Position numbers and translations under genes: made by a program. From NCBI GenBank assembly GCA_037137395.1, contig JBAXKK010000075.1, forward strand, positions 1-13,059: a stretch of DNA of 13,059 nucleotides, given 5' to 3'. The first letter of the stretch is position 1. Each line of letters begins with the position of its first letter. The notes under the pieces were generated by a model, which saw nothing but the letters and a program-made list of their open reading frames with translations, had not been told where the DNA came from and did not search any database. Origin of the DNA: Elusimicrobiota bacterium. GTDB lineage: Bacteria; Elusimicrobiota; Elusimicrobia; Elusimicrobiales; UBA9959. This document shows, in pieces, positions 1 through 13,059 of this stretch.

Positions 1-143
1 TTGGCGCGTTTTACTCGTCGGGTAGCCCAGATTTTTCTATTCCGTCTTTCCGGCGACCAGAGCCGCTGGTGAGACGGACCAACTGAAGCTTCCCGGCTAG
101 TCTTTGTATGGACGTAAAATATGATTCTGAATTTGAGTGAATA

Positions 144-1184
144 ATGAGCGACCTTTCAACTCCCCTGGTTTGTATTTGCGTGCCCACCTATAACGCCGGT
201 AAAACTCTTTCCGCGACACTGGATTCTATATTAGGGCAGACCTACCGCAATCTCGTTATTAAAGTTGTAGATAACGCTTCTACCGATAATACGCCGCAGA
301 TCGCTGATGTCTGCGCTTCAAAGGATCTTAGGGTTACCGTCATACGCCATGCCGATAACGTCGGAGCCGAAGGTAACTTCACGCGCTGTCTTCAACTGGC
401 TGAAGGTGATTATACCGCTATCTTCCACTCCGACGATATATATGCGCCTCAAATTGTAGAGGAGCAGGTTAAGTTCTTTCAGAATAATCCGGAAGCAGGC
501 GCTGTTTTTGCCATGGCTGATACTTGTGACGCAACCGGCCGTGTCGGGCGCAGTTATCGCCTGCCTTTAGCGTTATCCGCAAGACCCTCCGGCTTATATG
601 ATTTCCCTGCCATATTTAAAGCTATGTTAAAGCATGGAAATTTTCTGCTTTGTCCCGGTGCAATGGCCAGGAGTGAAATTTACAAGGATCATATCAAGCA
701 TTGGAATGGTGATCGTTTTAACACTTCCGCGGACCTTGATGTGTGGTTAAGGATACTGCAAAAATATCCGATAGGCGTGATAAATAAACCCTTATTCAAC
801 TACAGGGTAAGCCCGGCCAGTTTCAGCTATGGCGCCGGCAGGGCAAAGACAGAGCCACACGATTTATTGCGGGTTTTCGAAGCTTATGCGGCTGGTTTCG
901 CGCGGGATTTAATGGGGCCTGAAGAAAAATCCGACTATTCCCGGCTTCTGATGAACGACAATGTTAACAGGTCCTTTAATCTTGCCGCCATGGGTAAACC
1001 GGCTGAAGCCAGGGCCCTGCTTGCCGGTGTATTCCGCCCGGGAAGCCTCTCCACGGCCTTTTGCAGCGTTTATCACCTTAAGACCGTGGCTTTGGCGGTC
1101 CTGGCCGCCTTGCTCATATTCATTCCGCTGCCGGAGCGGGTAAAACGCCAAATCTCTATTTGGCGCTTTAAAACACGCGGATAG
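144..1184 (+). CDS. Glycosyltransferase family 2 (GT-A fold)
   Basis: N-terminal VCICVPTYNAG...VVDNASTD, NVGAEGNF and the FHSDD DxD-type motif are typical of GT2; hydrophobic C-terminal segment. Confidence 0.93.
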   Translation: MSDLSTPLVCICVPTYNAGKTLSATLDSILGQTYRNLVIKVVDNASTDNTPQIADVCASKDLRVTVIRHADNVGAEGNFTRCLQLAEGDYTAIFHSDDIYAPQIVEEQVKFFQNNPEAGAVFAMADTCDATGRVGRSYRLPLALSARPSGLYDFPAIFKAMLKHGNFLLCPGAMARSEIYKDHIKHWNGDRFNTSADLDVWLRILQKYPIGVINKPLFNYRVSPASFSYGAGRAKTEPHDLLRVFEAYAAGFARDLMGPEEKSDYSRLLMNDNVNRSFNLAAMGKPAEARALLAGVFRPGSLSTAFCSVYHLKTVALAVLAALLIFIPLPERVKRQISIWRFKTRG

Positions 1185-1204
1185 CGAAGCCAGTGTTTAG
1201 CTTG

Positions 1205-1233
1205 TTTCCAAAAGCAATCATTTTTTGTATATT
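1205..1233 (+). promoter_or_regulatory. Putative sigma70 promoter for a leaderless abiEi transcript
   Basis: TTTCCA (1205-1210), 17 bp spacer, TATATT (1228-1233); ATG at 1241 is 7 nt downstream with no Shine-Dalgarno sequence. Confidence 0.5.
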
Positions 1234-1240
1234 ATCAGAA

Positions 1241-1888
1241 ATGATATCCAAGCCAAAAGAAATACTTTCACACCTTGCCCGCGTGCCGTATTTTACCATC
1301 GGCGGGCTTAGTGTTTTTGATTTAAAAGCCGCGTATCTGCGCGTATTCCTTTCCCGGTTGGAGGAGCGCGGCGATATTATACGTCTTAAGAGAGGCTCAT
1401 ATGCCAGCCGGGCGTATTGTGACACCGTTAAAATCAGAGGTAAATGGACGCAGTATCTTGAATTCCTTGCCGCCAAACTTTACAGCCCGGCGTACCTTAG
1501 TCTTGATTACGTGCTTTATCAGCACAACCTGCTTACCGAGGTGCCGGTTAATTTTACGCTGGTTACCGCCAATAAAACCGCGGTTTATAAAAACGCGCTG
1601 GGGGTTTTCAGTTATCACAAAATTAAAAAGCCGCTTTTTTGCGGATATAATTCCGTGGCAGAGGGCGGGTTTCCGGTGTATAGGGCCTCAAAAGCAAAGG
1701 CGCTGTTTGATTTTATTTATTTCCGACGCAACTTGCTCTCCGGGGCCGGCGCTTTTAAAGCGCTGCGCCTGAACCTGGAGCGTTTAAGCAAAGCTGACAT
1801 TGCTGAGTTTAAAAAATACGCTGCCATCGCAAAAATGGATAAAATGGCTATGGTCGCGGGCTGGATCAAAAATGCTGGAAAATATTAA
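1241..1888 (+). CDS. abiEi: AbiEi-like type IV TA antitoxin / transcriptional regulator
   Basis: wHTH-type LSRLEERGDIIRLKRGSY, then AYLSLDYVLYQHNLLTE, VT and ASKAKALFDFIY motifs of AbiEi antitoxins; overlaps an AbiEii gene. Start moved from the GTG at 1193 to the ATG at 1241. Confidence 0.85.
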   Translation: MISKPKEILSHLARVPYFTIGGLSVFDLKAAYLRVFLSRLEERGDIIRLKRGSYASRAYCDTVKIRGKWTQYLEFLAAKLYSPAYLSLDYVLYQHNLLTEVPVNFTLVTANKTAVYKNALGVFSYHKIKKPLFCGYNSVAEGGFPVYRASKAKALFDFIYFRRNLLSGAGAFKALRLNLERLSKADIAEFKKYAAIAKMDKMAMVAGWIKNAGKY

Positions 1889-2687
1889 AAATCTATTGGC
1901 TGAAAACAGCGGCCTTTCCGCGGTTTTCCGACGCAACCTGATAAAGGAGTATTTACAAACGCTGGCGCTGGCTTTTATCTATTCGCGCAAAGAATATTCC
2001 GGTCTTGTGTTTTATGGCGGTTCGGCGCTGAAGCATTGCTATGGTTTGCCGCGGTTGTCCGAAGATTTGGATTTTGTGGACGCGCGGGGGGCGGTCTCTT
2101 TGCCGGCTCTTGCGACGGATCTAAAGGGGTATTTCGCAGCCAGGCATGGCCTTAAGGTTGAAACAAAGATTCAGAAATTCCGCGTGTTGCTGAAGTTTCC
2201 GTTGCTTTTTGAATTAGGCCTGGCGGCGTATCCGGAATCTGATATGCTTTTTTTAAAGTTGGAGCTATACACCGATATTTCGTTCTGCCGAAAATATAAA
2301 ACGGAAATAGTCCCGCTTTTTGAGCACGGAGAATCAGTGCTGGTGAAAACATTCGATCTTCCTACGCTTATGGCCACCAAGATCCGCGCTGTACTTAACC
2401 GCAGGTGGACGAAAACCGGCAAAGAAGGGGAAACGCTTGCAGTGGTAAAGGGGCGCGACTATTTTGATCTCATGTGGTATTTGCAAAAAGGCATTGAGCC
2501 GAATCTTGAATGTCTTGAAAATATTCCTGATAAAAAAGAGCTTTATGCCAGGCTTGTTTCCGCCGTTGAGAAAATAGACGCCGCCAGTATAAAATATGAC
2601 CTGGACGCTCTTATCGCGGATAGGGAATATGTCGATAATCTGGCAGGGAATTTAAAGCAAATTCTGCTTTCTCGGCTAAAGAAATAA
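1872..2687 (+). CDS. abiEii: AbiEii-family nucleotidyltransferase toxin
   Basis: FYGGSALKHCYGLPRLSEDLDF signature, plus K in LMATKIRA and KGRDYFDL; ATG at 1872 overlaps the antitoxin 3' end. Confidence 0.9.
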   Translation: MLENIKNLLAENSGLSAVFRRNLIKEYLQTLALAFIYSRKEYSGLVFYGGSALKHCYGLPRLSEDLDFVDARGAVSLPALATDLKGYFAARHGLKVETKIQKFRVLLKFPLLFELGLAAYPESDMLFLKLELYTDISFCRKYKTEIVPLFEHGESVLVKTFDLPTLMATKIRAVLNRRWTKTGKEGETLAVVKGRDYFDLMWYLQKGIEPNLECLENIPDKKELYARLVSAVEKIDAASIKYDLDALIADREYVDNLAGNLKQILLSRLKK

Positions 2688-2723
2688 AAACACTGTTTGT
2701 GGGGCAGCCAGGCAGCCTTATCT

Positions 2724-3863
2724 ATGAAACTTGCGATAATTAATCTTACCGGCGGGGGAATGAGCGGGGGGCATAAAAGTTATATCGCTAATATTTTGCC
2801 GCGCCTGGCCGCTTCGGATAAGATAGAAAAAATATTATGCGCTTCACCAGTCGGGTTTAAGGCCGAAACCTGGATCGCGCCCTCTCCAAAATTAAATTTG
2901 GCGGTATGCGAGCCGTTTAAATTGACTCGCTCCGCGCCTGACAAACAACTTAAGGCCACCCTTGATGCGTTCCGGCCGGATGTGGTGTTTGTTTCCATTG
3001 AAAGGCATTTCACCTATCCGGCAGCGCCAATTGTCACAATAGTGCACAATATGGCCCCGCTTGTAAGCATAAAAACGACCAGCGGGATACGGGAGAAACT
3101 TCAATCCTGGGCCAGGCGGTTTGAAACCGGCCGCGCCGCGCGCGGGGCCGCGGCTGTGATAGCGCCGACAGCCTTTGTCAGGGAGGCTCTTGTCGCCGGT
3201 TTGGGCGTGGAAAAGGAAAAAGTCTCGCTTATCCATTTTGGGCAGAGTCCCGTAGCCGCCCCGATTCCGCCGGCTGATAAAATTAACGATCTATTTAAAG
3301 AGGGGTTTGTTTTTACCGCCGGCTCATTTGAGATCTACAGGGGCTTTGAGGATCTGCTGCGGGCTTTTGCCGATATTAAATGGCGTTACCCGGGGCTTAA
3401 GTTGGTTGTAGCCGGGGGAACCAGGCTGGCCACATGCGGCTACAAATCCCGCATGGAAACCTTGGCTAAAGCCTTGGGCCTTTCCCGGAATGTGATCTGG
3501 CTCGGCCATGTTTCTCAGCAGGAACTTAACTGGTATTATTCTCACTGTTCGGCCTTTGCTCTCACCAGCCGCGTTGAGTCTTTTTGTTTTGTAGCTTTGG
3601 AGGCCCTGGCGCACGGCTGTAATTGTATCGCCACGGAGAGTCCCTGCCTGCCTGAAATACTGGCAGAAGCCTCTTTATACTATAAAGCCGGCGACTTTAA
3701 GGGATTAGGACATGGCCTGCTTGAAATTCTTGCTCGCGATAATGAAACCAGGAAACAGGCCTCGAGGAAAGCCGCGGAGCGCGCCGCCCGATTCTCCTGG
3801 GACCAAGCCGCCGATGAAACAATAAATTTGTTCCTAAAAGTCTCAGTAAATCGGAAATCGTAA
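2724..3863 (+). CDS. Glycosyltransferase family 4 (GT-B fold)
   Basis: SRVESFCFVALEALAHG (E-x7-E motif), WLGHVSQQEL and RFSWDQAA are typical of GT4; likely start is the ATG at 2724. Confidence 0.92.
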   Translation: MKLAIINLTGGGMSGGHKSYIANILPRLAASDKIEKILCASPVGFKAETWIAPSPKLNLAVCEPFKLTRSAPDKQLKATLDAFRPDVVFVSIERHFTYPAAPIVTIVHNMAPLVSIKTTSGIREKLQSWARRFETGRAARGAAAVIAPTAFVREALVAGLGVEKEKVSLIHFGQSPVAAPIPPADKINDLFKEGFVFTAGSFEIYRGFEDLLRAFADIKWRYPGLKLVVAGGTRLATCGYKSRMETLAKALGLSRNVIWLGHVSQQELNWYYSHCSAFALTSRVESFCFVALEALAHGCNCIATESPCLPEILAEASLYYKAGDFKGLGHGLLEILARDNETRKQASRKAAERAARFSWDQAADETINLFLKVSVNRKS

Positions 3864-4013
3864 AGCGTAAAGCGGAAAGCGGAAAGCGGAAAGCGGAAAG
3901 CGTAAATAGTAAGCGATCTCTATTCTGCTTATGGCTTAAAGCTTATAGCTTATGGCGTAGTTCGCTTACGGCCTAAAGCTTATAGCTTATGGCGTAGTTA
4001 TTCGCCTATGGCT
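3846..4013 (+). repeat. Heptamer repeat array 1 (A block GKAAAKC, linker, B block GCYTAHR)
   Basis: GTAAATC GGAAATC GTAAAGC GTAAAGC (GGAAAGC)x4 GTAAATA GTAA, a 14-nt linker, then GCTTATG GCTTAAA GCTTATA GCTTATG GCGTAGT... Confidence 0.95.
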
Positions 4014-4016
4014 TTT

Positions 4017-4025
4017 TGATATAAT
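4017..4025 (+). promoter_or_regulatory. Extended -10 promoter TGnTATAAT
   Basis: Perfect TG-A-TATAAT, conserved in the paralogous segment at 7059-7067. Confidence 0.65.
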
Positions 4026-4066
4026 TAGGTATTAAGGAATATACAAGCCTTTCGGCTGTAGTTTGG

Positions 4067-4112
4067 GCTTCCCTGGTTAATTAAATATACTGTCCCCGGA
4101 ATTACGGAATTA
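4067..4112 (+). repeat. Conserved junction site, copy A, with tandem CGGAATTA duplication
   Basis: GCTTCCCTGGTTAATTAAATATACTGTCCCCGGAATTA followed by a second CGGAATTA; matches copies at 7108, 8053, 9961 and 10773. Confidence 0.9.
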
Positions 4113-4131
4113 CCTTTATGGATTTATCATC

Positions 4132-4380
4132 ATGACCCCAAACGGCGACACAAGCCCTAAGGCGTGGGAGTTCCTTATCTCCCAACTGCGCGCCACTCCA
4201 CCCTGGCTCAAACTCCGGCAGGCCTCTGAGATGACCAATTCCTGCGCGGCTTTCTGCCTGGCCGGCATACGCACCCGCAATCCCCGCATATCCGAAGATG
4301 AGGTCAGGCTGGAATTCGCCCGCCTGCATCTTGGTGATACTCTGGCTGCGAAGGCATACGGCGGAAAAAAATCTTTATGA
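4132..4380 (+). CDS. Small helical protein, putative MenA1-like antitoxin
   Basis: 82 aa, ATGA-overlapped with the downstream NTase; the KLRxAxEM...RxRxP...E pattern resembles M. tuberculosis MenA1 (Rv0078B) as recalled, not searched. Confidence 0.65.
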   Translation: MTPNGDTSPKAWEFLISQLRATPPWLKLRQASEMTNSCAAFCLAGIRTRNPRISEDEVRLEFARLHLGDTLAAKAYGGKKSL

Positions 4381-4949
4381 CCATGAATCCCACGGAGATC
4401 CTGGGTCTGGTAACAAAAGCGCTCAATGCGCTTGGCGTGTCACACATGATTTGCGGCTCCCTTGCAAGTTCCGTGCATGGCCTTCCTCGCGCCACAATGG
4501 ACGCCGATCTTGTAGCTGAAATTAAGCCCGGACAGGCCGAATTGATAGTTAAAGCTTTGAAAAAAGACTTTTATGTAGAGAAAGAATCCATATTGGATGC
4601 AATTTCCAACAGCTCTTCATTTAACATCATTCATCTCGCTTCCTCTTTTAAAGTGGATATATTCTTATTGCGGAATAATCCATATTCCATTAATGAATTC
4701 GCGCGCAGGATGCCCCAGGCGGTTTCTGGGAATTCCGAACCGCCTTTTTTTGTGGCCACCCCGGAGGATGTAATACTAAGCAAACTGCGCTGGTATCTCC
4801 AGGGAGGGGAAGTCTCTGAGCGCCAGTGGAGCGATATTGTTGGGGTAATCAAGGTGCAGGGAGAACAGCTTGATCTGGAATATCTGAAACATTGGGCCAG
4901 CGAACTTGGTCTGTCTGGTATCCTTATAAAAGCTCTTTCCGGAAATTAG
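4377..4949 (+). CDS. Nucleotidyltransferase-fold protein, putative MenT1/DUF6036-like toxin
   Basis: ICGSLASSVHGLPRATMDADLV (G-S/G-G...R.T.DxD), KVDIF, VATPEDVILSKL and QWSDI motifs. Confidence 0.78.
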   Translation: MTMNPTEILGLVTKALNALGVSHMICGSLASSVHGLPRATMDADLVAEIKPGQAELIVKALKKDFYVEKESILDAISNSSSFNIIHLASSFKVDIFLLRNNPYSINEFARRMPQAVSGNSEPPFFVATPEDVILSKLRWYLQGGEVSERQWSDIVGVIKVQGEQLDLEYLKHWASELGLSGILIKALSGN

Positions 4950-5044
4950 TGTAACCCAAGCGTCTCAGCGTCTTATCAATTGACTGCCCGGCCGCCCACC
5001 TGACATCCCCAACCCTGCCCCATCAGACAATTAGGTGTCTCCAG

Positions 5045-5309
5045 AATCGTAAATAGTAATCAATTCTGCAAATGGCAAGCGGCGTCAATCGTAAAGCGGA
5101 AAGCGTAAATAGTAAGAAGTCTTTATTCTGCTTATGGCCTAAAGCTTATAGCTTATGGCGTAGTTATTAGCTTAAAGCCTAGAGCTTATGGCATGTTTTA
5201 GCCTATGGCTTAAAGCTTATAGCTTATGGCGTAGTTCGCTTACGGCCTAAAGCTTATGGCTTATGGCAGCTGTGATTCTACGTATGGCAAATGGCATTTC
5301 ACTTATGGC
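5045..5309 (+). repeat. Heptamer repeat array 2
   Basis: Alternating A blocks ending GTAAATAGTAA, linkers, C blocks (GCAAATG) and B blocks (GCTTATR/GCCTAAA/GCTTACG). Confidence 0.93.
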
Positions 5310-5319
5310 TAACCAACTC

Positions 5320-6777
5320 ATGCCTAAACACAGTTTTTTAAAAATTGCGACAGCTCTCCTTTTTACTCTTGCCTGGCTTATCTTGTCCGTGCTCGCGCTT
5401 GCGCATTATCCGGGTTCAAAATTAATTTATTCTGTCTTCTCCATAGCTTTTTTTTGCATGCTGGCCGGCGGGTTGTATAAACAGGATTCTTACGGCTATA
5501 TGTTTCTCACTATTTTCATGTGGCTTGGATTTTGGCTGAAGTTCACTGTTGGCACGATTATTGGCGCTAAATATGCCGAAGCAATCGGCGCTTTTATCCC
5601 AACCCCGGCAAATCTGGACAACATTCTGGGTATAGCTATCCTAGCCGCTTTCGCGGTAATAGTCGCCGGATTCTTATGCCGCTTTATTCCGGGGGGGGCG
5701 GCGTATTGTTCCGCAAAGCAAGACACTTGTCCGCCCTGGTATCCCCGTTTTCGTAAATGGTTATGGCTCGGTTTGTGGCTTTGCATTATCCTCATCCCGG
5801 TTGTAAACACTGTGCTTGGGATTAATCAGATCGGCCTTACTCCAAGGACTATTTTGCATTGGCCGTTAAACTTTCTTATAGCCTGGTTTCTTGGCATAGG
5901 TCTGTCAATGGGCGTTGTTACCTTGCTTTGGTGGGATATTTTAGCGAAAAGAGGGCCTCTTCAAGGCCTCTTTGCGGTGCTTGCCGAGGCTGCTATCTCC
6001 AGCACCTCGCTTTTAAGCCGTGGCACTTTTTTATGGCATGTTTTGCCTGCCGCCGCGGCGTCGGCTAAAAACTTTAAAGAACTTTTTTCGGCAATCTCTA
6101 AAATAAAAATATTTATGGCGGGCTGCGCGGCCGCTTTACTGTTTGCCGTTTCCTTTACCATGGCAAATACTATGCGGCAGTATTTTTATTCGGCCGATGT
6201 TGTTTCAGTTTTATCTTCAAAGGGCGGCAATGATTATAAAGGCAATAATGTTCAGGGGTTAACTTTGGCGATAAAAGGGTTCAGCACTGAATTTAAGGAT
6301 TTCTTTCAAAAAGCGTCCTCAATGGCTATAGGCAGGTGGATAGGTGTGGAAGGCGTAATGGCGGTAGCCGCCTATCCGATAAAAGGCCGTGATACTTTTT
6401 TGAAAGCCTTAATGGAAAAGAGAGAACTTGGAAAGGCTGATTTTTATCAGTCGGTCTGTCAGTCGGGTGTCGGTGATGACTTATACTTTCAAGTCGGCTC
6501 CCTGCCGGGTTTTGTCGCTTTTTTATATTACTCCGGTTCTCTGCTGGTAGTTTTTTTAGGGGTTTTGCTCCTCACTTTGGCGATTAGACTAAGTGAGGCC
6601 GGTGTCGGCTATCTAACCGGTAACCCCTTTATGTGTTCTCTCTGGGGGCTTGCCGCCGCCAATACTGCGGCGCAGCTATCAGCCCCGCGCCAGATGCTAC
6701 CGTATTTTTCAGCTATAATCTGCGCCCTAATTTTTATCCACCTCATCCAGGGGGGGATCGTAAATCGGAAAACGTAA
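5320..6777 (+). CDS. Polytopic membrane protein, probable O-antigen/polysaccharide polymerase (Wzy-like)
   Basis: About 10-12 hydrophobic segments, an SRG motif, a large hydrophilic loop and a GxxGFxxFLYYSG segment; lies among GTs and wzz. The ATG at 5263 is inside repeat DNA, so 5320 (or 5305) is the more likely start. Confidence 0.65.
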   Translation: MPKHSFLKIATALLFTLAWLILSVLALAHYPGSKLIYSVFSIAFFCMLAGGLYKQDSYGYMFLTIFMWLGFWLKFTVGTIIGAKYAEAIGAFIPTPANLDNILGIAILAAFAVIVAGFLCRFIPGGAAYCSAKQDTCPPWYPRFRKWLWLGLWLCIILIPVVNTVLGINQIGLTPRTILHWPLNFLIAWFLGIGLSMGVVTLLWWDILAKRGPLQGLFAVLAEAAISSTSLLSRGTFLWHVLPAAAASAKNFKELFSAISKIKIFMAGCAAALLFAVSFTMANTMRQYFYSADVVSVLSSKGGNDYKGNNVQGLTLAIKGFSTEFKDFFQKASSMAIGRWIGVEGVMAVAAYPIKGRDTFLKALMEKRELGKADFYQSVCQSGVGDDLYFQVGSLPGFVAFLYYSGSLLVVFLGVLLLTLAIRLSEAGVGYLTGNPFMCSLWGLAAANTAAQLSAPRQMLPYFSAIICALIFIHLIQGGIVNRKT

Positions 6778-7053
6778 AGCGTAAATAGAAAATCGTAAAT
6801 CGGAAAGCGTAAAGCGTAAATAGTAACCAATCCCTTTTCTGCCTACGGCCTAAAGCTTATGGCCTAAAGCTTATAGCTTATGGCGTAGTTCGCTTACGGC
6901 CTAAAGCTTATGGCCTATGGCGTAGTTCGCTTACGGCCTAAATCGTAAAGCGGAAAACGTAAAGCGTAAATAGTAAGCAATTCTGCAAATGGCAAACGGC
7001 GAATGGCATTTTTTACTCTGCAAATGGCGGGCGCAGCGCCCTCAGCCTATGGC
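6760..7053 (+). repeat. Heptamer repeat array 3
   Basis: GTAAATC GGAAAAC GTAAAGC GTAAATA...GTAA, 14-nt linker, B block, A block, 8-nt linker, GCAAATG GCAAACG GCGAATG. Confidence 0.93.
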
Positions 7054-7058
7054 TTTTT

Positions 7059-7067
7059 TGATATAAT
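7059..7067 (+). promoter_or_regulatory. Extended -10 promoter TGnTATAAT
   Basis: TG-A-TATAAT in the same context (GCCTATGGCTTTTT(T)GATATAAT) as 4017-4025. Confidence 0.65.
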
Positions 7068-7136
7068 GAGATGTAGAGGGGTATGCAGGCCTTTAGGTTA
7101 TAACTGCGCTTCACTGGCAATTAAATATACTGTCCC

Positions 7137-7333
7137 GAATGGCGCTAACTTAAGCCCTTTTGGCTTAAAAACCCTAACCAATCCGTCTCACCGGCGAAAG
7201 CCGGTGTCCAGATTGTGGCAAGATCTGGATTCCGGCTTTCGCCGGAACGACATAATAAAAAATCCGGAACTGCCAACGGTTAAAAACTACGCCTTGAAAA
7301 ATTGCCGGTTAGGGCCTTAAGTTAGTGCCATTC
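7137..7333. mobile_element. 197-bp non-autonomous MITE with IS4-family-like ends
   Basis: 18-bp TIRs GAATGGCGCTAACTTAAG (7137-7154) and CTTAAGTTAGTGCCATTC (7316-7333), 17/18 match; flanking 11-bp direct repeat TATACTGTCCC (7126-7136) / TATACTGTTCC (7334-7344); no transposase. Confidence 0.85.
7185..7251. repeat. REP/dRS3-like double-palindrome element nested in the MITE
   Basis: GTCTCACCGGCGAAAGCCGGTGTCCAGAT...ATCTGGATTCCGGCTTTCGCCGGAACGAC; each arm is a hairpin and the arms are inverted relative to each other. Confidence 0.85.
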
Positions 7334-7362
7334 TATACTGTTCCCGGAATTATCTAAACGTT

Positions 7363-7671
7363 ATGAATTTACAACATTATCCCGCAGAAAAACTTAAGGC
7401 GGACCTGCTGGCTATTGTGGGCAGGCGCCTTGATCTGGTCCAATACCGGCTTTTTTACTTCGGTTCACGCGTAACAAATAAGGGCGACGACCATTCCGAC
7501 ATAGACGTGGGCGTTGAAGGCCCTGCCCCGGTACCGGCGGCAATACTTGACGGGATAAAGGAAGACCTGGTAAATCTGCCCGTCGTCTATAAAATAGATT
7601 TTGTGGATTTTGCCTCCGTTTCCGAGGATTTTAAAAAAGTGGCTCTTGCCAATATCGAGGTTATAAAATGA
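7363..7671 (+). CDS. Minimal nucleotidyltransferase (MNT) antitoxin, HI0073-like
   Basis: FYFGSRVTNKGDDHSDIDVGV (GS-x10-DxD) and KIDFVD; ATGA overlap with the partner gene. Confidence 0.88.
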   Translation: MNLQHYPAEKLKADLLAIVGRRLDLVQYRLFYFGSRVTNKGDDHSDIDVGVEGPAPVPAAILDGIKEDLVNLPVVYKIDFVDFASVSEDFKKVALANIEVIK

Positions 7672-8048
7672 CAAAGCAGGAAGCTCAACTGGACCAATTT
7701 AAAAAAGCCTTGGCCCGCCTTAATGAGGCCCTTGCCGCTCCCAAAAGCGATATCGTGCGCGACTCAGCCATACAGCGCTTTGAATTCACCATAGATATGG
7801 CCTGGAAACTGGTAAAAACCTGCCTTGAGGAAAAATACGGCGTTGTGTGCCAAGCCCCCAAAGAATGCTTCAGGGAGGCTTATAAGCAAAAACTGCTTGC
7901 CTACGACGAATTCTGGCTGGAACTTATAGATATGCGCAACCAAACCTCACACACATACAAAGAAGAGGTGGCCCAAAGCGTATTTGAACGCCTCCCCAAA
8001 ACCGCCGGGTATATGGCGGCGCTTGTGAAGGCCATAGAGGGGAAATAG
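7668..8048 (+). CDS. HI0074-family HEPN protein (nucleotidyltransferase substrate-binding subunit / putative RNase toxin)
   Basis: RDSAIQRFEFT, PKECFREA and RNQTSHTY (Rx4HxY). Confidence 0.9.
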   Translation: MTKQEAQLDQFKKALARLNEALAAPKSDIVRDSAIQRFEFTIDMAWKLVKTCLEEKYGVVCQAPKECFREAYKQKLLAYDEFWLELIDMRNQTSHTYKEEVAQSVFERLPKTAGYMAALVKAIEGK

Positions 8049-8052
8049 CCGC

Positions 8053-8088
8053 GCTTTACTGGTAATTAAATATACTGTCCCCGGAATT
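8053..8088 (+). repeat. Conserved junction site, copy C
   Basis: GCTTTACTGGTAATTAAATATACTGTCCCCGGAATT begins a few nt after the HEPN stop codon. Confidence 0.9.
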
Positions 8089-8112
8089 TCAGCGGAGTCA
8101 AGTTTCAAGACC

Positions 8113-8142
8113 TGACCCCCTACATATGTGACCCCCTACATA
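8113..8142 (+). repeat. 14-bp direct repeat TGACCCCCTACATA
   Basis: Copies at 8113-8126 and 8129-8142, preceded by CAAGACC. Confidence 0.85.
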
Positions 8143-8196
8143 GAAATAGTTCATATGGAAATTTTAAGAGACGCAGTAATGCTGCGCAAACTATAA

Positions 8197-8237
8197 AATA
8201 TATGTATAATAAACATAATGTTTATTATACATATATT
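8197..8237. promoter_or_regulatory. Perfect 41-bp palindrome overlapping a TATAAT (putative operator/promoter)
   Basis: AATATATGTATAATAAACAT-A-ATGTTTATTATACATATATT; TATAAT at 8205-8210; RBS GAGGTG at 8238-8243 follows immediately. Confidence 0.75.
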
Positions 8238-8248
8238 GAGGTGTATTA

Positions 8249-9622
8249 ATGAAACTTCACTTTCTTGACAGAACCGGCGAACAAAAACGACTGGCGCGCG
8301 CCCTTAGCGCGGACGGCGGCGTCCTGGCGGTTGTCTATGGCCGCCGGCGCTGCGGTAAGTCAACGCTTATCCAGCGCGTTGTCGGTAATAGCGGCGTATA
8401 TTACCTTGCCGATCAAAAAGAGACCTCGCTGCAGCTGCGTGACCTCGCTGTGGAAATTGACAGGCTTATCCCCGGTTTTTCCCGCGCGACCTACTCCGGT
8501 TGGGACGCGTTATTGTCAACTCTTAACAGCCGGCTTCCCGGGAGCATTTCGCTGTTTCTGGATGAAGTCCCATACCTGGTACAGCTTTCCCCGGAACTGC
8601 CCAGCATACTGCAGAAGTACATAGACCAGCCCGGCGCAAAAAAAATCAATCTAGTCCTGTGCGGCTCCTCGCAAAGAATGATGCACGGCCTTGTAATGGA
8701 TAAAACCGCCCCGCTGTACGGCAGAGCTGTTGAGATACTTAAAATCACGCCGCTTAACGCGGGGTGGATCCGCCAGGGTCTTAAGCTGAAAGCCGTTGAG
8801 GCTGTAGAGGCTTTTTCCGTATGGGGCGGGGTGCCCCGTTACTGGGAGTTGGCCGCGCAATTCGTTAAACTTGAGACCGCCATAACCGAACTTATCCTGG
8901 ACCCCAACGGCGTCCTGCATGAGGAACCTATGCGCCTGCTTATGGATGACATGCGCAGCGCGGTGCAGCCTTATTCACTGTTATCGGTTATCGGCCAGGG
9001 CTGCCACCGCCTGTCTGAAATAGCCGGCCGTCTGGGCAAACCCTCCACCAGCATCCTGCGTCCTCTTCTACAGTTGGTGGACCTTGGTTATGTCCGCCGC
9101 GAAACGCCCTTTGGCGAGAACAGCAAGTCAACCAAGCGAGCTCTCTATAAGCTGGATGACCCGTTCCTTATTTTCTATTTTAAATTCCTCCAGCCCAATA
9201 AATCGCAGTTGGAAATCCGCGCCATCTCCTCGGTTATGACTAAAATCCGCGCGCAGTTTCAACAGCATGTCTCCGGCATCTGGGAGGAATTAGCCCGCGC
9301 AAGCGTTCCCGCCTGCTCGATTGACGGCTGTGAGTGGGGGGCGGCCAAGCGCTGGTGGGGGGTGGGCATAGACGGGACCATGGTGGAAATTGACGGTGTT
9401 GCTGAGTCTTTGGACGGCAAGGCGCTGCTCGTTGGCGAAGCTAAATGGAGCGATGCCCGATTACCGATAGTCGAACTAAAAGATATGCTTTTGGCTAAAG
9501 CCAAAAACTGCGCGTTTGCGCGTGGGCGCAGAATAGTGCCTGTAATCTGGTCTAAACATGTCTATAAAAATACCGGCGTCCATGTTTTAACCCCCGACGC
9601 CGTGCTTGATTGCCTGCAATAA
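8249..9622 (+). CDS. Archaeal-type ATPase (ATPase_2-like) with wHTH and C-terminal DUF234-like PD-(D/E)XK domain
   Basis: FLDR, Walker A YGRRRCGKS, Walker B FLDEVPYL, LCGSS, LYGR, GGVPRY, DPFLIFYFKF and EIDGVA...GEAKW. Confidence 0.9.
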   Translation: MKLHFLDRTGEQKRLARALSADGGVLAVVYGRRRCGKSTLIQRVVGNSGVYYLADQKETSLQLRDLAVEIDRLIPGFSRATYSGWDALLSTLNSRLPGSISLFLDEVPYLVQLSPELPSILQKYIDQPGAKKINLVLCGSSQRMMHGLVMDKTAPLYGRAVEILKITPLNAGWIRQGLKLKAVEAVEAFSVWGGVPRYWELAAQFVKLETAITELILDPNGVLHEEPMRLLMDDMRSAVQPYSLLSVIGQGCHRLSEIAGRLGKPSTSILRPLLQLVDLGYVRRETPFGENSKSTKRALYKLDDPFLIFYFKFLQPNKSQLEIRAISSVMTKIRAQFQQHVSGIWEELARASVPACSIDGCEWGAAKRWWGVGIDGTMVEIDGVAESLDGKALLVGEAKWSDARLPIVELKDMLLAKAKNCAFARGRRIVPVIWSKHVYKNTGVHVLTPDAVLDCLQ

Positions 9623-9659
9623 CCCGTTCCCGGGTGTTCTCGCAGTTTTGACCGTTAAT

Positions 9660-9960
9660 GTGAAGCGTAAATAGGCAATCGTAAATCGTAAATAGTAACC
9701 AATCTCTATTCTGCTTATGGCCTAAAGCTTATGGCCTATGGCATAGTCATTAAGCGGAAAGCGTAAAGCGTAAATAGTAAGCAATTCTGCAAATGGCCAA
9801 TGGCAAATGGCAGTTTTTTCTGCTTATGGCCTAAATCGTAAAGCGGAAAACGTAAAGCGTAAATAGTAAGAAGTCTTTATTCTGCTTATGGCCTAAAGCC
9901 TATAGCTTATGGCGTAGTCATTAAGCGGAAAACGTAAAGCGTAAATAGTAAGAAGTCTTT
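9660..9960 (+). repeat. Heptamer repeat array 4
   Basis: Four A blocks each ending GTAAATAGTAA, with linkers and B/C blocks; the last linker runs into junction-site copy D. Confidence 0.93.
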
Positions 9961-9996
9961 GTTTCATTGGTAATTAAATACTCCGGAGGGGTCCCC
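9961..9996 (+). repeat. Degenerate junction site, copy D
   Basis: GTTTCATTGGTAATTAAATACT, then CCGGAGGGGTCCCC. Confidence 0.6.
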
Positions 9997-10013
9997 TTCC
10001 GCCGTCCTGCTTT

Positions 10014-10022
10014 TGCTATAAT
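10014..10022 (+). promoter_or_regulatory. Extended -10 promoter for a leaderless mntA transcript
   Basis: TG-C-TATAAT, 6 nt before the ATG at 10029, with no SD sequence. Confidence 0.7.
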
Positions 10023-10028
10023 ATTTTT

Positions 10029-10322
10029 ATGACTTTTTATGATATTAAAAGCAGGATTATACCGGTATTAATAAGGCAAGGCGTGCTTAAAGCGGCGCTT
10101 TTCGGCTCTTTTGCCCGCAATGAAGGCGGCAAAAATAGCGACATTGACCTGCTTGTAAAATTGGGGAAGAATAAAACCCTGCTTGACCTGGTCACCTTGA
10201 AACTAGAGCTTAAATCAAAACTTCGCGTGAAAGTGGATCTTTTGACTTACGATTCAATAAATCCGCTGCTAAAAAGCCGTATTCTGAAAGAACAGAAATT
10301 GATATATGAAAAAAGAGCCTGA
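10029..10322 (+). CDS. mntA: Minimal nucleotidyltransferase (MntA-type) antitoxin
   Basis: LFGSFARNEGGKNSDIDLLV and KVDLLT. Confidence 0.9.
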   Translation: MTFYDIKSRIIPVLIRQGVLKAALFGSFARNEGGKNSDIDLLVKLGKNKTLLDLVTLKLELKSKLRVKVDLLTYDSINPLLKSRILKEQKLIYEKRA

Positions 10323-10653
10323 GATATTTGTCAAACATATACTTGATAGCATCGTGGAAATTGAAAGACACACTCTCAAGATATCCTTGCCGGATTTCCT
10401 TAAATCAACGCTGATTCAGGACGCGACAATACGCAGATTGGAAATAATAGGCGAAGCCGTAAAGAAAATACCAGCCGAAGCCCGCTCTTCCGCAAAGGAT
10501 ATACCCTGGAAGCAGATAGCAGGCTTGAGAGATTTATTGATCCATGAATATTTCGGAGTGGATTTACGGCTTGTGTGGAAAGTTGTAATAAAAGATTTGC
10601 CGGATTTGAAGAAAAACATGCTTAAACTCCTAAAAGAGTTAGATTCTAACTGA
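10306..10653 (+). CDS. hepT: DUF86 HEPN RNase toxin (HepT-type)
   Basis: DATIRRLEIIGEA and IPWKQIAGLRDLLIHEYFGVD (Rx4HxY); overlaps mntA. Confidence 0.92.
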   Translation: MKKEPEIFVKHILDSIVEIERHTLKISLPDFLKSTLIQDATIRRLEIIGEAVKKIPAEARSSAKDIPWKQIAGLRDLLIHEYFGVDLRLVWKVVIKDLPDLKKNMLKLLKELDSN

Positions 10654-10688
10654 TATACCGCGGTTGTGAAATTTAAAGGGGGGAGCTC

Positions 10689-10844
10689 ATGAACTCGCAA
10701 TTACAGGGAAATAGGTCGGATTCAGACGAAATTGATTTGTTTGAGATATGGGCCAAGATTAAGCCCGTGGCTGGGCTTCACTTGTCCCCGGAATTCCCGG
10801 CTTGTAAAATATTACGGATGAACGGCACAGGGGCAGGGGCCTGA
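10689..10844 (+). pseudogene. Truncated wzz 5' remnant
   Basis: Strong SD (GGGGAG) and a 51-aa ORF MNSQLQGNRSDSDEIDLFEIWAKIKP... carrying the Wzz N-terminal DEIDL motif but no TM1; Wzz-like sequence stops at junction-site copy E. Confidence 0.7.
10773..10800 (+). repeat. Junction site, copy E (internally deleted)
   Basis: GGGCTTCACT joined directly to TGTCCCCGGAATT, lacking the central GGYAATTAAATATAC, and followed by CCCGG. Confidence 0.75.
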
Positions 10845-10891
10845 CGGCGACCGGGCGGGTAAGCGATTCCAATGTTTTAAGGAGTTATAGA

Positions 10892-11905
10892 ATGATAAAT
10901 CAAAATCAGAATTATAATCAGGAAATAGATTTAGCCGAATACGCCGCGGTGTTGGTAAAGCGCTGGAAATTGGTTCTGGCCGTTTTTCTGACGTCCGTTA
11001 CCGCGGCCGCGGTGATTAATTACAGGGCGCCTAAAGTCTGGAATATTTCAATGATTATCGAACCCAGTATGCTGCCTGACGCCTTTAGCGGCAGTTTGCC
11101 CGCTGCCAAATTGTTGGACACGCCCGGCAATATTAAGGCCAGGATAGATGCCGGCAGCTTTGATGTCAATGTGGTGAATGCTTTGCGGTTGACGCCTTAC
11201 TACGATGTGCGATTAGAGGTGTCCCTGCCCAAACTTTCCACATTTTTAATACTCAGCATTAAAAAGCCGGAGAACGAGAAAGAGCTTGGTGTCAGGATCT
11301 TGGATCGGTTTTTTAACGAACTTACCGCTTTCTACAGGGAAACAGTTGATCTTAAAAAGGATGCCGTGGGCCTGCAGATTTCTATTACCGCCAATAGCGT
11401 AAAAAGTAAGTATGACTCAATAAAAAGACTGGGGGAAAATCTTAAAATAATCGAAGCGCGCGAAATTGAGCTGCTGGGCGAGCTTAAAGAGACCAGGACC
11501 AATACGGAACAATTACTGGCTAAAAAAAACCTGCTTCTTGAGAGCAAAGCCCAGGGAGATGACATTTCCTCTCTGTTGTATTTAAACACCATACAGCAGA
11601 ATATGGCCTATTTTAATCAATTGAACAATCAACTGGCGGACAATAAAACAAAAAAAGAAACCGTGGTGGGCTCCGTCAAAGAACTGCAGACCGATATCAG
11701 CAACCTGGGCATTGAGATCGAAAAGCTGACGGCTGCCAAAGCCGGCATCCGCAATCTGGTTATGATCCAGAAGCCGGAAATCTCGACCAGGCCGGTGGGG
11801 CCGCGCAAGGCCCGCAATATTTTGCTTGCCGCTGTTTTGGGGCTGTTCGGCGGCGCCATCCTGGCATTTTTTATCGATTTTGCAGGTAAATGCGGAAAGC
11901 CTTAA
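10892..11905 (+). CDS. wzz: Polysaccharide chain-length determinant (Wzz / PCP family)
   Basis: SD AAGGAG; N-terminal QEIDL plus TM1, a coiled-coil periplasmic region, then proline-rich PEISTRPVGPRK plus glycine-rich TM2 (LGLFGG). Confidence 0.9.
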   Translation: MINQNQNYNQEIDLAEYAAVLVKRWKLVLAVFLTSVTAAAVINYRAPKVWNISMIIEPSMLPDAFSGSLPAAKLLDTPGNIKARIDAGSFDVNVVNALRLTPYYDVRLEVSLPKLSTFLILSIKKPENEKELGVRILDRFFNELTAFYRETVDLKKDAVGLQISITANSVKSKYDSIKRLGENLKIIEAREIELLGELKETRTNTEQLLAKKNLLLESKAQGDDISSLLYLNTIQQNMAYFNQLNNQLADNKTKKETVVGSVKELQTDISNLGIEIEKLTAAKAGIRNLVMIQKPEISTRPVGPRKARNILLAAVLGLFGGAILAFFIDFAGKCGKP

Positions 11906-11997
11906 CCTGAAATTTCAGGTGAAGTTTTCCGCCAGTAGTCCGGCGTGGTGAGACGCGTAAATAACCAAGAAACAAAGCAACGTCCCCCCAAGACACA

Positions 11998-12026
11998 TTG
12001 CTTTTAGTGCAACTATATGCTATGTT
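11998..12026 (+). promoter_or_regulatory. Putative sigma70 promoter (near-leaderless)
   Basis: TTGCTT, 17 bp spacer, TG-C-TATGTT; ATG at 12036 is 9 nt downstream with no SD. Confidence 0.6.
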
Positions 12027-12035
12027 GTAAGTCAT

Positions 12036-13059
12036 ATGGTTAAAAGAAAATACTGGCGGGATTTAATACATAAAGCCTTTTCCAGGCGCCCCATAGTCTG
12101 GCTGTCCGGCATACGGCGTTCTGGTAAGACCGTGCTTTCCTCCGGTTTTCCCGGCGCCGAATACTTTGATTGCGAACTTCCCAGGGTACGGGCCATGCTT
12201 TCGGACCCGGAAATGTTTTTAGCGTCAAAAGCCGGAAAGTTGCTTGTGCTTGACGAAATCCACAAGCTGGATAACCCGTCTGAAATACTGAAAATATCCC
12301 ACGACCACTATCCGACAGTTAAAATAATAGCCACCGGTTCGTCCACGCTATCGGCTTCGGCTAAATTTAAAGATACGCTCACCGGCAGAAAAACGGAAAT
12401 CAGGCTTACGCCGATGAATTCCCGCGATTCACGGGATTTCAAGATTATTGATTTAAACCGCCGTCTTCACCGCGGCGGCCTTCCGCCATTTATACTTTCT
12501 GAGACCTACCCGGAAAAGGATTATCAGGAGTGGCTTGATTCATATTGGGCCAGAGATGTGCAGGATATGTTTAAGCTTGAAAAAAGGTCGGCTTTCCTTA
12601 AATTCGTTGAACTTGTCTTCGCGCAAAGCGGTGGAATATTTGAGGCCTCAAAATTTGCCGCCCCTTGCGAAATTGGCCGCGCTACCGTTGCCAATTACCT
12701 TTCAGTCCTTGAGGCAACCGGAGTGGCATGCCCGGTGCGCCCTTTTTCAAGCCGCCTTGCCAACGAAATAGTGACAGCGCCTAAAGTATACGGCTTTGAC
12801 ACTGGTTTTCTGTGTTTTTTTCGAGGTTGGGACACGCTGCGGGAAGATGATAAGGGGATTTTGTGGGAGCATCTGGTTTTAAACGAGATGCTTAGCGTGC
12901 TTCAAACCACGGATATTAACTACTGGCGCGACAAAGCCGGGCACGAAATTGATTTTGTGCTTAAAAAGCGCGGCCGGCCTCCTCAGGTCATAGAATGTAA
13001 ATGGAAATCTTCCAAGTTTGATTGCGCGGCCCTGCGCGTCTTCAGGCGGCGCTATCCTC
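12036..13059 (+). CDS. AAA_14-type ATPase with C-terminal DUF4143-like domain (3' partial)
   Basis: Manually translated, open to the window end: MVKRKYW...GIRRSGKT (Walker A), VLDEIH (Walker B), ATGSS, LTGRK, GGLP, PKVYGFDTG and YWRDKAGHEIDFV...IECKW. Confidence 0.9.
   Translation, partial: MVKRKYWRDLIHKAFSRRPIVWLSGIRRSGKTVLSSGFPGAEYFDCELPRVRAMLSDPEMFLASKAGKLLVLDEIHKLDNPSEILKISHDHYPTVKIIATGSSTLSASAKFKDTLTGRKTEIRLTPMNSRDSRDFKIIDLNRRLHRGGLPPFILSETYPEKDYQEWLDSYWARDVQDMFKLEKRSAFLKFVELVFAQSGGIFEASKFAAPCEIGRATVANYLSVLEATGVACPVRPFSSRLANEIVTAPKVYGFDTGFLCFFRGWDTLREDDKGILWEHLVLNEMLSVLQTTDINYWRDKAGHEIDFVLKKRGRPPQVIECKWKSSKFDCAALRVFRRRYP

Follow-up and report, generated by a model that had tools for sequence, protein, structure and literature searches.

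The window, by which we mean the whole stretch of 13,059 nucleotides analysed here, belongs to a surface-polysaccharide locus of the Wzy type, a hotspot at which small modules have been acquired horizontally. Many joints of these modules bear the terminal sequence of a TIRYT, a known transposase of single-stranded DNA that has received little study, and suggest, short of proof, that this enzyme helps to splice in new blocks. We regard the locus as a recombination hotspot in which a TIRYT probably makes one joint of a block and homologous recombination the other, a reading to which we grant slightly less than an even chance.

Results

Organization of the window

The features of the window are collected in Table 1; the gene order and the single-strand layout described in the first-pass annotation hold up. 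Two further metagenome contigs match positions 1 to about 5000 with 100% protein identity. The contigs of run X1 cover 26-3898, 4201-5109, 5241-6884, 7315-9791 and 9931-13051 with zero letter differences and end at the heptamer arrays.

Table 1. Coordinates of the features of the window (nt, nucleotide identity; aa, amino acids; TA, toxin-antitoxin)
Feature	Position	Strand	Remarks
GT2 glycosyltransferase, backbone	144..1184	+	PF00535; 82% nt vs L058
AbiEi-AbiEii type IV TA module	1193..2687	+	own upstream region included; missing from L058
GT4 glycosyltransferase, backbone	2724..3863	+	PF00534; 87% nt vs L058
Junction J1, heptamer arrays of types HA and HB	3846..4012	+	L058 has a shorter form here
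J1, shared ~60-nt unit and TIRYT terminal repeat S (4079-4103)	4017..4103	+	
Putative TA pair, 82-aa ORF and nucleotidyltransferase-like 190-aa ORF	4132..4949	+	
Junction J2, heptamer arrays	5045..5280	+	no TIR
Wzy-like membrane protein inside added block	5323..6777	+	Atlas score 0.99
Junction J3, heptamer arrays (6757-7050), shared unit, first half of S	6757..7136	+	
MITE inserted in S	7137..7333	.	21-nt inverted ends
Second half of MITE-split S	7334..7352	+	
MNT-HEPN module 1	7363..8048	+	between direct copies of shared unit and S
Junction J4, 3' part of shared unit, S (8064-8088), TIR-type motif P (8106-8119)	8046..8122	+	
ATPase_2-HTH-DUF234 module	8249..9622	+	PADLOC candidate PDC-S27
Junction J5, heptamer arrays (9659-9957), degenerate S (9963-9996)	9659..9996	+	
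MNT-HepT module 2	10029..10653	+	81% nt copy elsewhere in G002
Foreign wzz, 5' fragment	10689..10762	+	76% nt over 54 nt vs G002 wzz; translation
Junction J6, S with internal deletion (10763-10794), then wzz leader common to L058	10763..10800	+	
wzz	10892..11905	+	
53-nt element ending in TIR core of second TIRYT family Q	11935..11987	+	
AAA_14-DUF4143 module, truncated by contig end	12036..13058	+	PADLOC candidate PDC-S01

The module formed by the 82-aa and 190-aa ORFs has no match in Pfam, NCBIfam or PADLOC, and a PDB search with the 190-aa protein gave none either; the nucleotidyltransferase assignment is a lead from the Atlas, nothing more. A homolog of this module (75% nt) lies in a different sugar-export locus of the relative G053, with an edge devoid of TIR. 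For the Wzy-like protein, PF14296 is found on 16-24% of the members of its Atlas cluster, which is likewise a lead; the protein is 69% identical in amino acids to its counterpart in G053 and 39% to that in G002, and its position is not matched in L058.

Variation of the locus among relatives

The gene content of the locus is variable and not fixed: L058, the locus of a relative, has an empty GT2-GT4-junction-wzz form without modules. Its single junction consists of heptamers, the shared unit, the TIR S and the motif P, with S preceding P as in J4. In the window, between GT4 and wzz, about 6.7 kb lie between five co-oriented partial copies of this junction, which bound four added blocks. As a DNA search did not find the wzz region in G001, G003, G004, G006 and G053, L058 is the sole empty form, and it may result from a deletion between repeats instead of being the ancestor. 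The sequences L059 and G053:C33 are identical and were counted once.

A second variable place lies between GT2 and GT4, which are separated by 10 nt in L058. This slot holds AbiE in the genome of the window (G000), an ATPase in G001, three genes in G002, a wzy-type gene in G011 and G053, and nothing in L058. Differing inserts between the same conserved gene pair characterize a slot of the minimal mobile element type, and GT2|GT4 fits this description. Neither S nor a heptamer array was detected in the slot in G001 and G002, and homology of the AbiE module with its copies in G026 and G004 begins at 1199-1201.

It had been claimed that every module boundary from 3846 onward is marked by a heptamer array or by the site. 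This is mostly true, the exception being the boundary between the second HEPN gene and the wzz fragment (10654-10688), which has neither; the two AbiE boundaries upstream of 3846 are also without array or site, neither TIR nor heptamer being found at the ends of that module. The added blocks between GT4 and wzz are bounded by partial junction copies, but neither site nor array accompanies the modules gained or lost at the GT2|GT4 slot or most homologous modules of relatives. In relatives, the homologs of the window modules begin at a promoter or a start codon, without TIR; for MNT-HEPN 1 and 2, homology starts at the start codon immediately behind a junction. Copies of MNT-HEPN 1 (93% nt in G028, 83% in G002) stand in other contexts without S, copies of AAA_14-DUF4143 at 91% aa lie after GT2 in G002 and in a block behind GT4 in G053, and G001 has a further module ahead of tviB, again without TIR. 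The homologous modules found elsewhere lack S, and the site does not appear to be carried with them between genomes.

The site S is the end of a transposase

The site noted for its GTCCCC turns out to be one end of a HUH transposase of the TIRYT/RAYT kind, namely its terminal inverted repeat (TIR). The bare hexamer was rejected as evidence: its 5 copies, all on the + strand, compare with 4.2 expected, and 83 of 200 shuffles reach 5. Nor do the five hexamers form one site, the one at 11982 ending another TIR family. The 23-nt site S, searched with at most 3 mismatches, matches the window twice (4079 and 8064) and was found 0 times in 200 shuffles. The MITE, whose 11-nt target duplication agrees at 10 of 11 positions, interrupts a third copy at 7119, and the copies located at 9963-9996 and 10763-10794 are degenerate. 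S is not specific to cassettes but is a transposase end dispersed across the whole genome, with 35 copies in G000 (20 on the + strand and 15 on the - strand) which, according to our TIR census of this genome, lie mostly between ordinary genes. It was found in 32 of 80 genomes of the family, the reversed control giving 0.

The folding energy of solo S is 0 kcal/mol and the junction units have z scores of -0.35 to +1.95 against shuffles (+0.6 to +2.0 for the three stretches of the window); S doublets do fold (z -9.7). Comparison with shuffles gives no support to a structured hairpin or attC in the shared unit that precedes S. We also discarded a promoter in this unit: a TATAAT hexamer is present, yet among the sigma-70 sites listed by the consensus scan (14 for 12.1 expected) none falls at J1 or J3. 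The Rfam search gave 0 matches. With neither a GTAG foot nor a hairpin of its own, S is not a REP or REPIN of the GTAG type. When 185,579 genomes were scanned for TATAAT, a gap and the TIR, 12 loci were returned. In the 10 that we annotated, we saw no polysaccharide locus with a copy of the junction unit, but their record titles place the TIR in several phyla.

On contig C4 of G000, a PF01797 gene is flanked by S as an inverted pair, and such a pair also brackets TIRYT homologs in all four of the 700-800 nt pairs retrieved from relatives (L036-L039). The stop codon of the TIRYT, in C4 as in L036, is the TAA inside the S repeat. The C4 protein retains the HUH and Y---NP residues, and its score against NF047646 is 58.9 bits, under the cut-off of 80. 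The reverse complements of S and P match the published GGGGWSAS, and the Q core deviates from it at the final two positions. Judged by this TIR consensus, the enzyme is assigned to the TIRYTs, that is RAYT group 1 or TnpA-Y1 subclass 2.1. G000 has three cognate enzyme-TIR pairs (C4, C46 and C47 types, the gene of the Q family sitting on C46), and a survey of the phylum for PF01797, with matches in 62 of 121 genomes, was not informative.

Module joints at the TIRs

Modules of G000 stand between direct pairs of TIRs belonging to three families: S around MNT-HEPN in the window, Q around MNT-HEPN on C23 (a 55-nt perfect repeat), and the C47 type around an AAA_14 gene on C126. The HTH-MNT gene pair of G053 is enclosed by S. 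Displaced gene ends are also found beside TIRs: the last ~140 nt of wzz are repeated at 84% on C23, 1 nt past the TIR core, and in G053 a displaced 3' end of fcl runs from +6 of the TIR (86% over 175 nt, the first ~80 near-identical). Homology of the window's AAA_14 ATPase with G002 begins at 11988, directly after the Q element.

In a genome-wide screen, 2 of 6 candidate displaced ends began at a TIR, against 14 of 2098 random intergenic positions; one of the two is the end that had prompted the test, and the second is the 3' end of a TIRYT itself. Strict TIRs point into 3 of the 22 AAA_14/MNT genes of G000 against 21/1220 (p=0.008), a difference which becomes marginal when the contig of the window is excluded (2/19 against 21/1215, p=0.047). 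Short TIR cores give 6/22 against 25/1220, and no enrichment is seen when the published consensus is used by itself (1/22 against 41/1220). The looser patterns had been partly tuned after the modules had been seen. No TIR core lies upstream of 16 of the 22 genes. In the loci of relatives, where the flanks were mostly 3 kb, just 4 of 107 S sites show a duplication.

The heptamer arrays are a second class of repeats

The heptamer arrays form a second, genome-wide class of repeats, separate from S. G000 contains 131 such loci on 64 contigs, and 83 of 99 lie between co-directional genes. On C76, the HA heptamer forms inverted arms around a PF05635 four-helix-bundle gene, and a 7-nt periodicity is present on both sides of 10 of 23 full-length loci of the PF05635 family, compared to 14 of 459 control genes. 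Given this two-sided periodicity, the arrays of the window, which has no PF05635 gene, may be gene-less relics of PF05635 units. We did not find this link between heptamer arms and the PF05635 gene in the published literature.

Discussion

We propose that one end of an incoming block would be joined at the outer end of a TIR; the enzyme would probably be a TIRYT that works in trans, with single-stranded DNA as its substrate. The other end would be joined by homologous recombination in a common flank, which would be a sugar-gene end or the mosaic of repeats. What then remains behind the TIR would be either direct repeats or the displaced end of a gene. Such a route would be opportunistic and one-ended rather than a dedicated system of ordered cassettes, and further modules of the same locus would have come in without any TIR. 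Once in place, TA modules probably persist through addiction or through an anti-phage benefit.

The TIRs and heptamers, spread by elements of their own, might instead only lend shared sequence, RecA-type recombination (of the Campbell or homology-facilitated illegitimate kind) adding and removing the blocks, in parallel with what has been proposed for the NIME arrays of Neisseria and for minimal mobile elements. We take this explanation seriously and still find it somewhat doubtful. The 43-54 nt of perfect heptamer-array identity which the junctions share would serve it well, as would the arrays without TIR at J2, the 111-nt direct repeat around wzy-GT4 in G053, the 139-nt duplication (83%) in L109, whose joint is away from any TIR, and the many modules devoid of TIR; however, it does not explain why the wzz and fcl ends lie 1-6 nt from the TIR cores of two families, nor does it account for the short duplications directly after TIR ends. 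That modules and solo TIRs merely gather in the tolerant gaps of a fast-evolving operon, without causal link, the lineage of L058 having never gained the modules or having lost them by deletion, we consider improbable. The MITE also targets TIRs, so that such gaps do collect repeats, and the position of most S copies between ordinary genes and the abundance of heptamer loci agree with this; but the copies of the window share with the junction of L058 a unique ~60-nt unit, which independent TIR insertions would not, and the module of C23 lies within its perfect repeat.

The first-pass annotation had seen in the locus a dedicated integron-like platform, in which a site-specific recombinase acting in trans on one att-type site shuffles glycan and conflict cassettes. 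The junction copies are indeed co-oriented, a relative is empty, and the homology of MNT-HEPN 1 and 2 starts right behind a junction. Nevertheless this explanation appears highly improbable, and integron-like machinery is not borne out. No IntI was found in G000 (98.9% complete, 174 contigs), where the best match to TIGR02249 has 75.5 bits for a cut-off of 265, some integrase matches being cut by contig ends. In the TIR census, none of its 6 tyrosine recombinase matches is linked to S, and neither the junction unit nor a solo S folds. At least three end families are involved, S occurs genome-wide, and modules do not appear to carry the site between genomes. The contigs of four runs, which drop rare variants, contain no credible joint for an excised circle or an empty site: the 15 joints listed of 29 all link repeat arrays over 20-38 nt on either side, for which other repeat loci are the best explanation, and they speak neither for nor against rare circles. 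The IntI/attC version is largely refuted. For an enzyme in trans, the TIRYT of C4 is a candidate.

One could go further and propose that TIRYTs are general gene-capture enzymes which, acting in trans, join foreign single-stranded DNA at the outer end of their own solo TIR and, with homologous recombination, build co-oriented arrays of defence or TA genes and glycan genes. We find this rather unlikely. If true, such systems would be the functional counterpart of integrons, with a single-strand transposase at their core. The locus offers concrete substrates: the junction is available both empty and filled, G000 has three cognate enzyme-TIR pairs, and the joints are resolved to within a few bases. 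We know of no explanation for the interleaving of polysaccharide loci with TA and AAA-DUF4143 genes in many environmental bacteria.

Comparison with known systems

Sedentary chromosomal integrons hold co-oriented, TA-rich genes between repeated sites and vary between relatives. The window resembles them in its co-orientation, repeated sites, TA richness and variability, and differs in having no IntI, no attC hairpin, and a site which is a genome-wide transposase end, apparently not carried by cassettes.

In the accessible sections of the TIRYT literature (Di Nocera et al. 2013, PMC3733652; Quentin et al. 2018, PMC6006769; PMC5581495), a TIRtron is a Y1 HUH gene between inverted GGGGWSAS repeats which overlap the 3' end of the gene, and TIRs occur as dispersed single, dimeric and grouped copies; all these traits are found here. 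Subclass 2.1 is given there as one of the largest among Y1 transposases, with 14.9% of strains (PMC6006769). Direct TIRs around TA or ATPase modules or beside displaced gene ends are undescribed in these sections, where we found no TIRYT biochemistry or demonstrated function (PMC3733652, PMC6006769, PMC5581495); for TnpA-REP enzymes of the REP-associated groups 2 and 3, single-stranded DNA cleavage and strand transfer in vitro are described in the portions available.

For the NIME (dRS3) arrays of Neisseria, a model with one specific end and one RecA end is put forward in the accessible part of the study (Bentley et al. 2007, PMC1797815). On that basis, both systems have mosaic intergenic repeats beside surface genes and a hypothesised repeat-specific crossover finished by homologous recombination; the repeat and the enzyme class are unrelated, and NIME arrays mostly exchange alleles, whereas whole TA/ATPase and wzy blocks are added here. 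Heptamers such as TAACTGA in Beggiatoaceae (PMC4679880, in the part accessible) are, like ours, short intergenic 7-nt arrays chiefly between co-directional genes, HA making in addition inverted arms around a PF05635 gene.

In the non-subscription literature, we found nothing on TIRYT-mediated gene capture beyond a preprint on prochlorosins, which proposes that a TnpA-REP transposase diversifies neighbouring genes, with truncated C-terminal fragments nearby; it found no TIRs, and no strong evidence on causality either way (10.1101/2020.03.09.984088). The transposase subclass is the same, but here the enzyme gene is on a separate contig and its ends mark the joints.

The best mechanistic analogy for the TIRYT model is provided by the ISCR elements and complex class 1 integrons. 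ISCRs are IS91-like elements with the transposase inside the unit. Their HUH enzyme, with one fixed end, captures the DNA next to it, and a flanking segment is duplicated when this DNA integrates by homologous recombination. The difference is that, in our locus, the enzyme would be of the Y1 class and would work in trans, on ends that stand alone.

Identity of the long site and of the heptamer arrays

The window takes up all of contig C75. The gene order and the single coding strand claimed for the window by the first-pass annotation were confirmed by ORF and family scans, and the arrangement is backed piecewise by other assemblies. Neither the "MenAT-like" pair nor wzy matches a curated family; Atlas leads point to a nucleotidyltransferase for the former and an O-antigen polymerase for the latter. 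The annotation also placed an array or a site at every module boundary from 3846 onward. This holds for most junctions (four carry heptamer arrays) but not for the HEPN2/wzz-fragment boundary, which has neither array nor site; nor have the two AbiE boundaries, which precede 3846. An 8-nt inverted repeat borders the AbiE module exactly; it is absent at the AbiE copies of two relatives (G004 and G026) and may be due to chance. The bare hexamer GTCCCC is present in the window at the level of shuffled sequences. The long site containing it, S, was found intact twice, and in none of 200 shuffles.

When the genome (G000) was scanned for this site, as the annotation had advised, S proved to bracket a transposase gene (PF01797) on contig C4. 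S is the terminal inverted repeat (TIR) of a TIRYT, a Y1 HUH transposase of RAYT group 1. The genome has four PF01797 genes: the C4 gene is surrounded by S copies, and each of the other three has its own end type. A homologous gene is enclosed by an inverted S pair in four relatives (all 4 inverted pairs spaced by 700-800 nt, among 20 loci from relatives, enclose the gene), and in C4 and locus L036 the repeat includes the gene's stop codon. The reverse complement of S matches GGGGWSAS, a consensus given for TIRtron ends (PMC3733652), whose enzymes are placed in subclass 2.1 (PMC6006769). With up to one mismatch allowed, the 14-nt core has 35 copies in G000 (20 on the + strand, 15 on the - strand), and the 19-nt form is present in 32 of 80 family genomes (reversed control, 0). 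Strong folding is seen in gene-less inverted S doublets and not in solo S. In 40 relatives' loci picked around apparently single sites, S lies mostly between ordinary genes, and an ATPase module follows it directly in 2, as judged from N-termini and not by family scan. In several relatives (L099, L102, L111) no more than 3 nt separate a solo S from a start codon; TIRs may thus provide translation signals or take their place.

The heptamers belong to a second, separate class of repeats; they are not a recombination site of the window locus. Arrays occur at 131 loci on 64 contigs of G000, and 83 of the 99 loci with two close neighbours sit between co-directional genes, in either orientation. Inverted arms of one heptamer type, HA, surround the PF05635 gene of G000; periodicity of 7 nt on both sides was seen at 10 of 23 full-length loci of this family (7 weaker or fused matches of the 30 returned were excluded), against 14 of 459 control genes. 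Elsewhere, on C52, the 3' end of the gene upstream of a weak PF05635 (Avd-like) gene recurs behind the latter with differences mainly at adenines, which looks like a putative diversity-generating retroelement.

Coordinates and composition of the features discussed
Feature	Location	Description
J1, J3	window	heptamer arrays + shared unit + S
J4	window	3' part of shared unit + S + P
J5	window	degenerate junction copy
J6	window	deleted S + wzz leader
Intact S	window 4079, 8064
S split by MITE	window 7119-7352
Degenerate S	window near 9963, near 10763
GTCCCC	window 11982	end of core of the C46 gene's TIR
S direct pair	window	around MNT-HEPN
Q direct pair	G000:C23	around MNT-HEPN; 55-nt perfect repeat; contig begins at repeat
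C47-type direct pair	G000:C126	around AAA_14 gene
Inverted repeat, 8 nt	window 1191-1198, 2688-2695
Inverted repeat, perfect, 20 nt	window 8197-8237	overlaps likely promoter of ATPase_2-HTH gene; possible autoregulatory operator
Dispersed repeat, ~29 nt	window 11906-11934	at least 18 further copies in genome
MITE copies	window 7137-7333; G000:C58:979-1535; G000:C4:~36550	~21-nt inverted ends, 11-nt target duplications
Inverted S pair	G000:C4:40753-42664
Cassette-like arrays	G000:C46:360-6562; G000:C47:1398-5129
TviB-IstB fusion	G000:C23:1622-3295
PF05635 gene and 3'-end repeat	G000:C52:13300-14836
Orphan left ends	G002:C16:4223-4274, 1592-1631	AbiE module and MNT2, in polysaccharide locus

Variation among relatives

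Gene content is variable, not fixed, both in the GT2/GT4 slot and between GT4 and wzz. In the window the slot is occupied by AbiE, in G001 by an ATPase and in G002 by three genes; G011 and G053 have wzy-type genes there, and in locus L058 just 10 nt separate GT2 from GT4. Break points coincide with the site, as the annotation expected, in the GT4-wzz interval but not at this slot, where neither S nor a heptamer array was detected in G001 and G002. Homologs of window modules (73-93% nucleotide identity) occupy other contexts in relatives; their edges carry no TIRs, and the similarity reaches no further than the promoter or start codon on one side and the stop codon on the other.

L058, 87% identical to the window in GT4 and 82% in wzz at the nucleotide level, reads GT4, heptamers, shared unit (~60 nt upstream of S), S, P (another TIR-type motif), wzz leader. 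In this unpolarised comparison, its single junction appears in the window as five co-oriented pieces around ~6.7 kb of additional DNA; the junction is duplicated. The orphan ends in G002 are signs of repeated gain and loss.

Direct repeats and displaced gene ends

Direct TIR copies bracket modules in G000 for three TIR families: S, Q and the C47 type. G053 reads fcl, S-like end, ATPase-like gene, S, HTH-MNT pair, S and a second fcl 3' end, which begins 6 nt past the S repeat. On C23 a copy of the wzz 3' end begins 1 nt past a Q end; on inspection of the alignment, this copy is nearer to L058 than the window's own wzz end is, and it runs on into the L058-type downstream region; we infer that C23 continues the window's contig, C75. 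The same C23 carries an in-frame fusion of a TviB-like dehydrogenase with an IS21 IstB ATPase, either a deletion product or a misassembly. A screen of G000 for displaced ends found a TIR at the start of 2 of 6 candidates (one had prompted the test and the other is a TIRYT's own end), compared with 14 among 2098 intergenic positions drawn at random; the four TIR-less candidates are one mirror of a counted pair, two inverted repeats and one DGR-like template.

Adjoining two other TIRYT genes, C46 and C47 hold cassette-like arrays in which ORFs with signal-peptide-like N-termini alternate with TIRs, either co-oriented copies or ~205-nt doublets, and with truncated 3' ends of transposase genes. 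On C4 the ~1.9 kb inside an inverted S pair hold nucleotidyltransferase/MNT/HEPN-like genes where a transposase gene would be expected. At the three places listed, a MITE family, putatively IS4-like by its end sequence, lies within TIR or TIR-like sequence, so this family may target TIRYT ends.

A possible mechanism and its rivals

A TIRYT acting in trans would nick single-stranded DNA at the outer end of a TIR and join it, and homologous recombination in a shared flank would complete the insertion, giving "repeat-module-repeat" or "gene-modules-TIR-displaced gene end". Cleavage and strand transfer of single-stranded DNA are described for the related TnpA-REP enzymes (PMC8266576). That the enzyme makes one joint and recombination the other is our preferred reading, held tentatively and at a little under even chances. 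Several results speak against a role of the TIRYT. Of the 107 S sites in loci of relatives, no more than 4 showed a duplication, the joint of the L109 duplication lies away from the TIR, and in G001 a module precedes tviB without a TIR. Whether TIRs are enriched in front of AAA_14/MNT genes varies with the pattern used: 1/22 against 41/1220 with the published consensus, 3/22 against 21/1220 with strict TIRs, 6/22 against 25/1220 with short cores, and 8/25 against 26/2289 with partly post-hoc patterns. (Of the 19 AAA_14 matches at or above the cut-off in G000, at least 17 are strong and lie in stand-alone ATPase genes; sugar loci contain many of them.) Passive homology producing the junctions is a serious competitor, if a somewhat less probable one.

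Mere coincidence of modules and TIRs we consider unlikely. The annotation had favoured a dedicated integron-like platform. This we find very improbable: no IntI was found in the genome, and the assembled contigs hold no credible excised circle or empty-site joint.

Comparison with known systems

The constituent parts are of known kinds. Two-step logic, with one joint made by an enzyme and homologous recombination for the other, is known from ISCR elements. In the open-access literature we found no account of TIRYT ends contributing to the accretion of modules; the nearest precedent is a prochlorosin preprint (10.1101/2020.03.09.984088), whose authors now state that strong evidence is lacking on either side. 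What the window locus contributes is a relative with the empty form, the similar behaviour of three TIR families, and displaced ends of genes that start at TIRs. The logic of our preferred reading, with TIRYT and recombination each making one joint, is the same as that proposed for the NIME arrays of Neisseria (PMC1797815).
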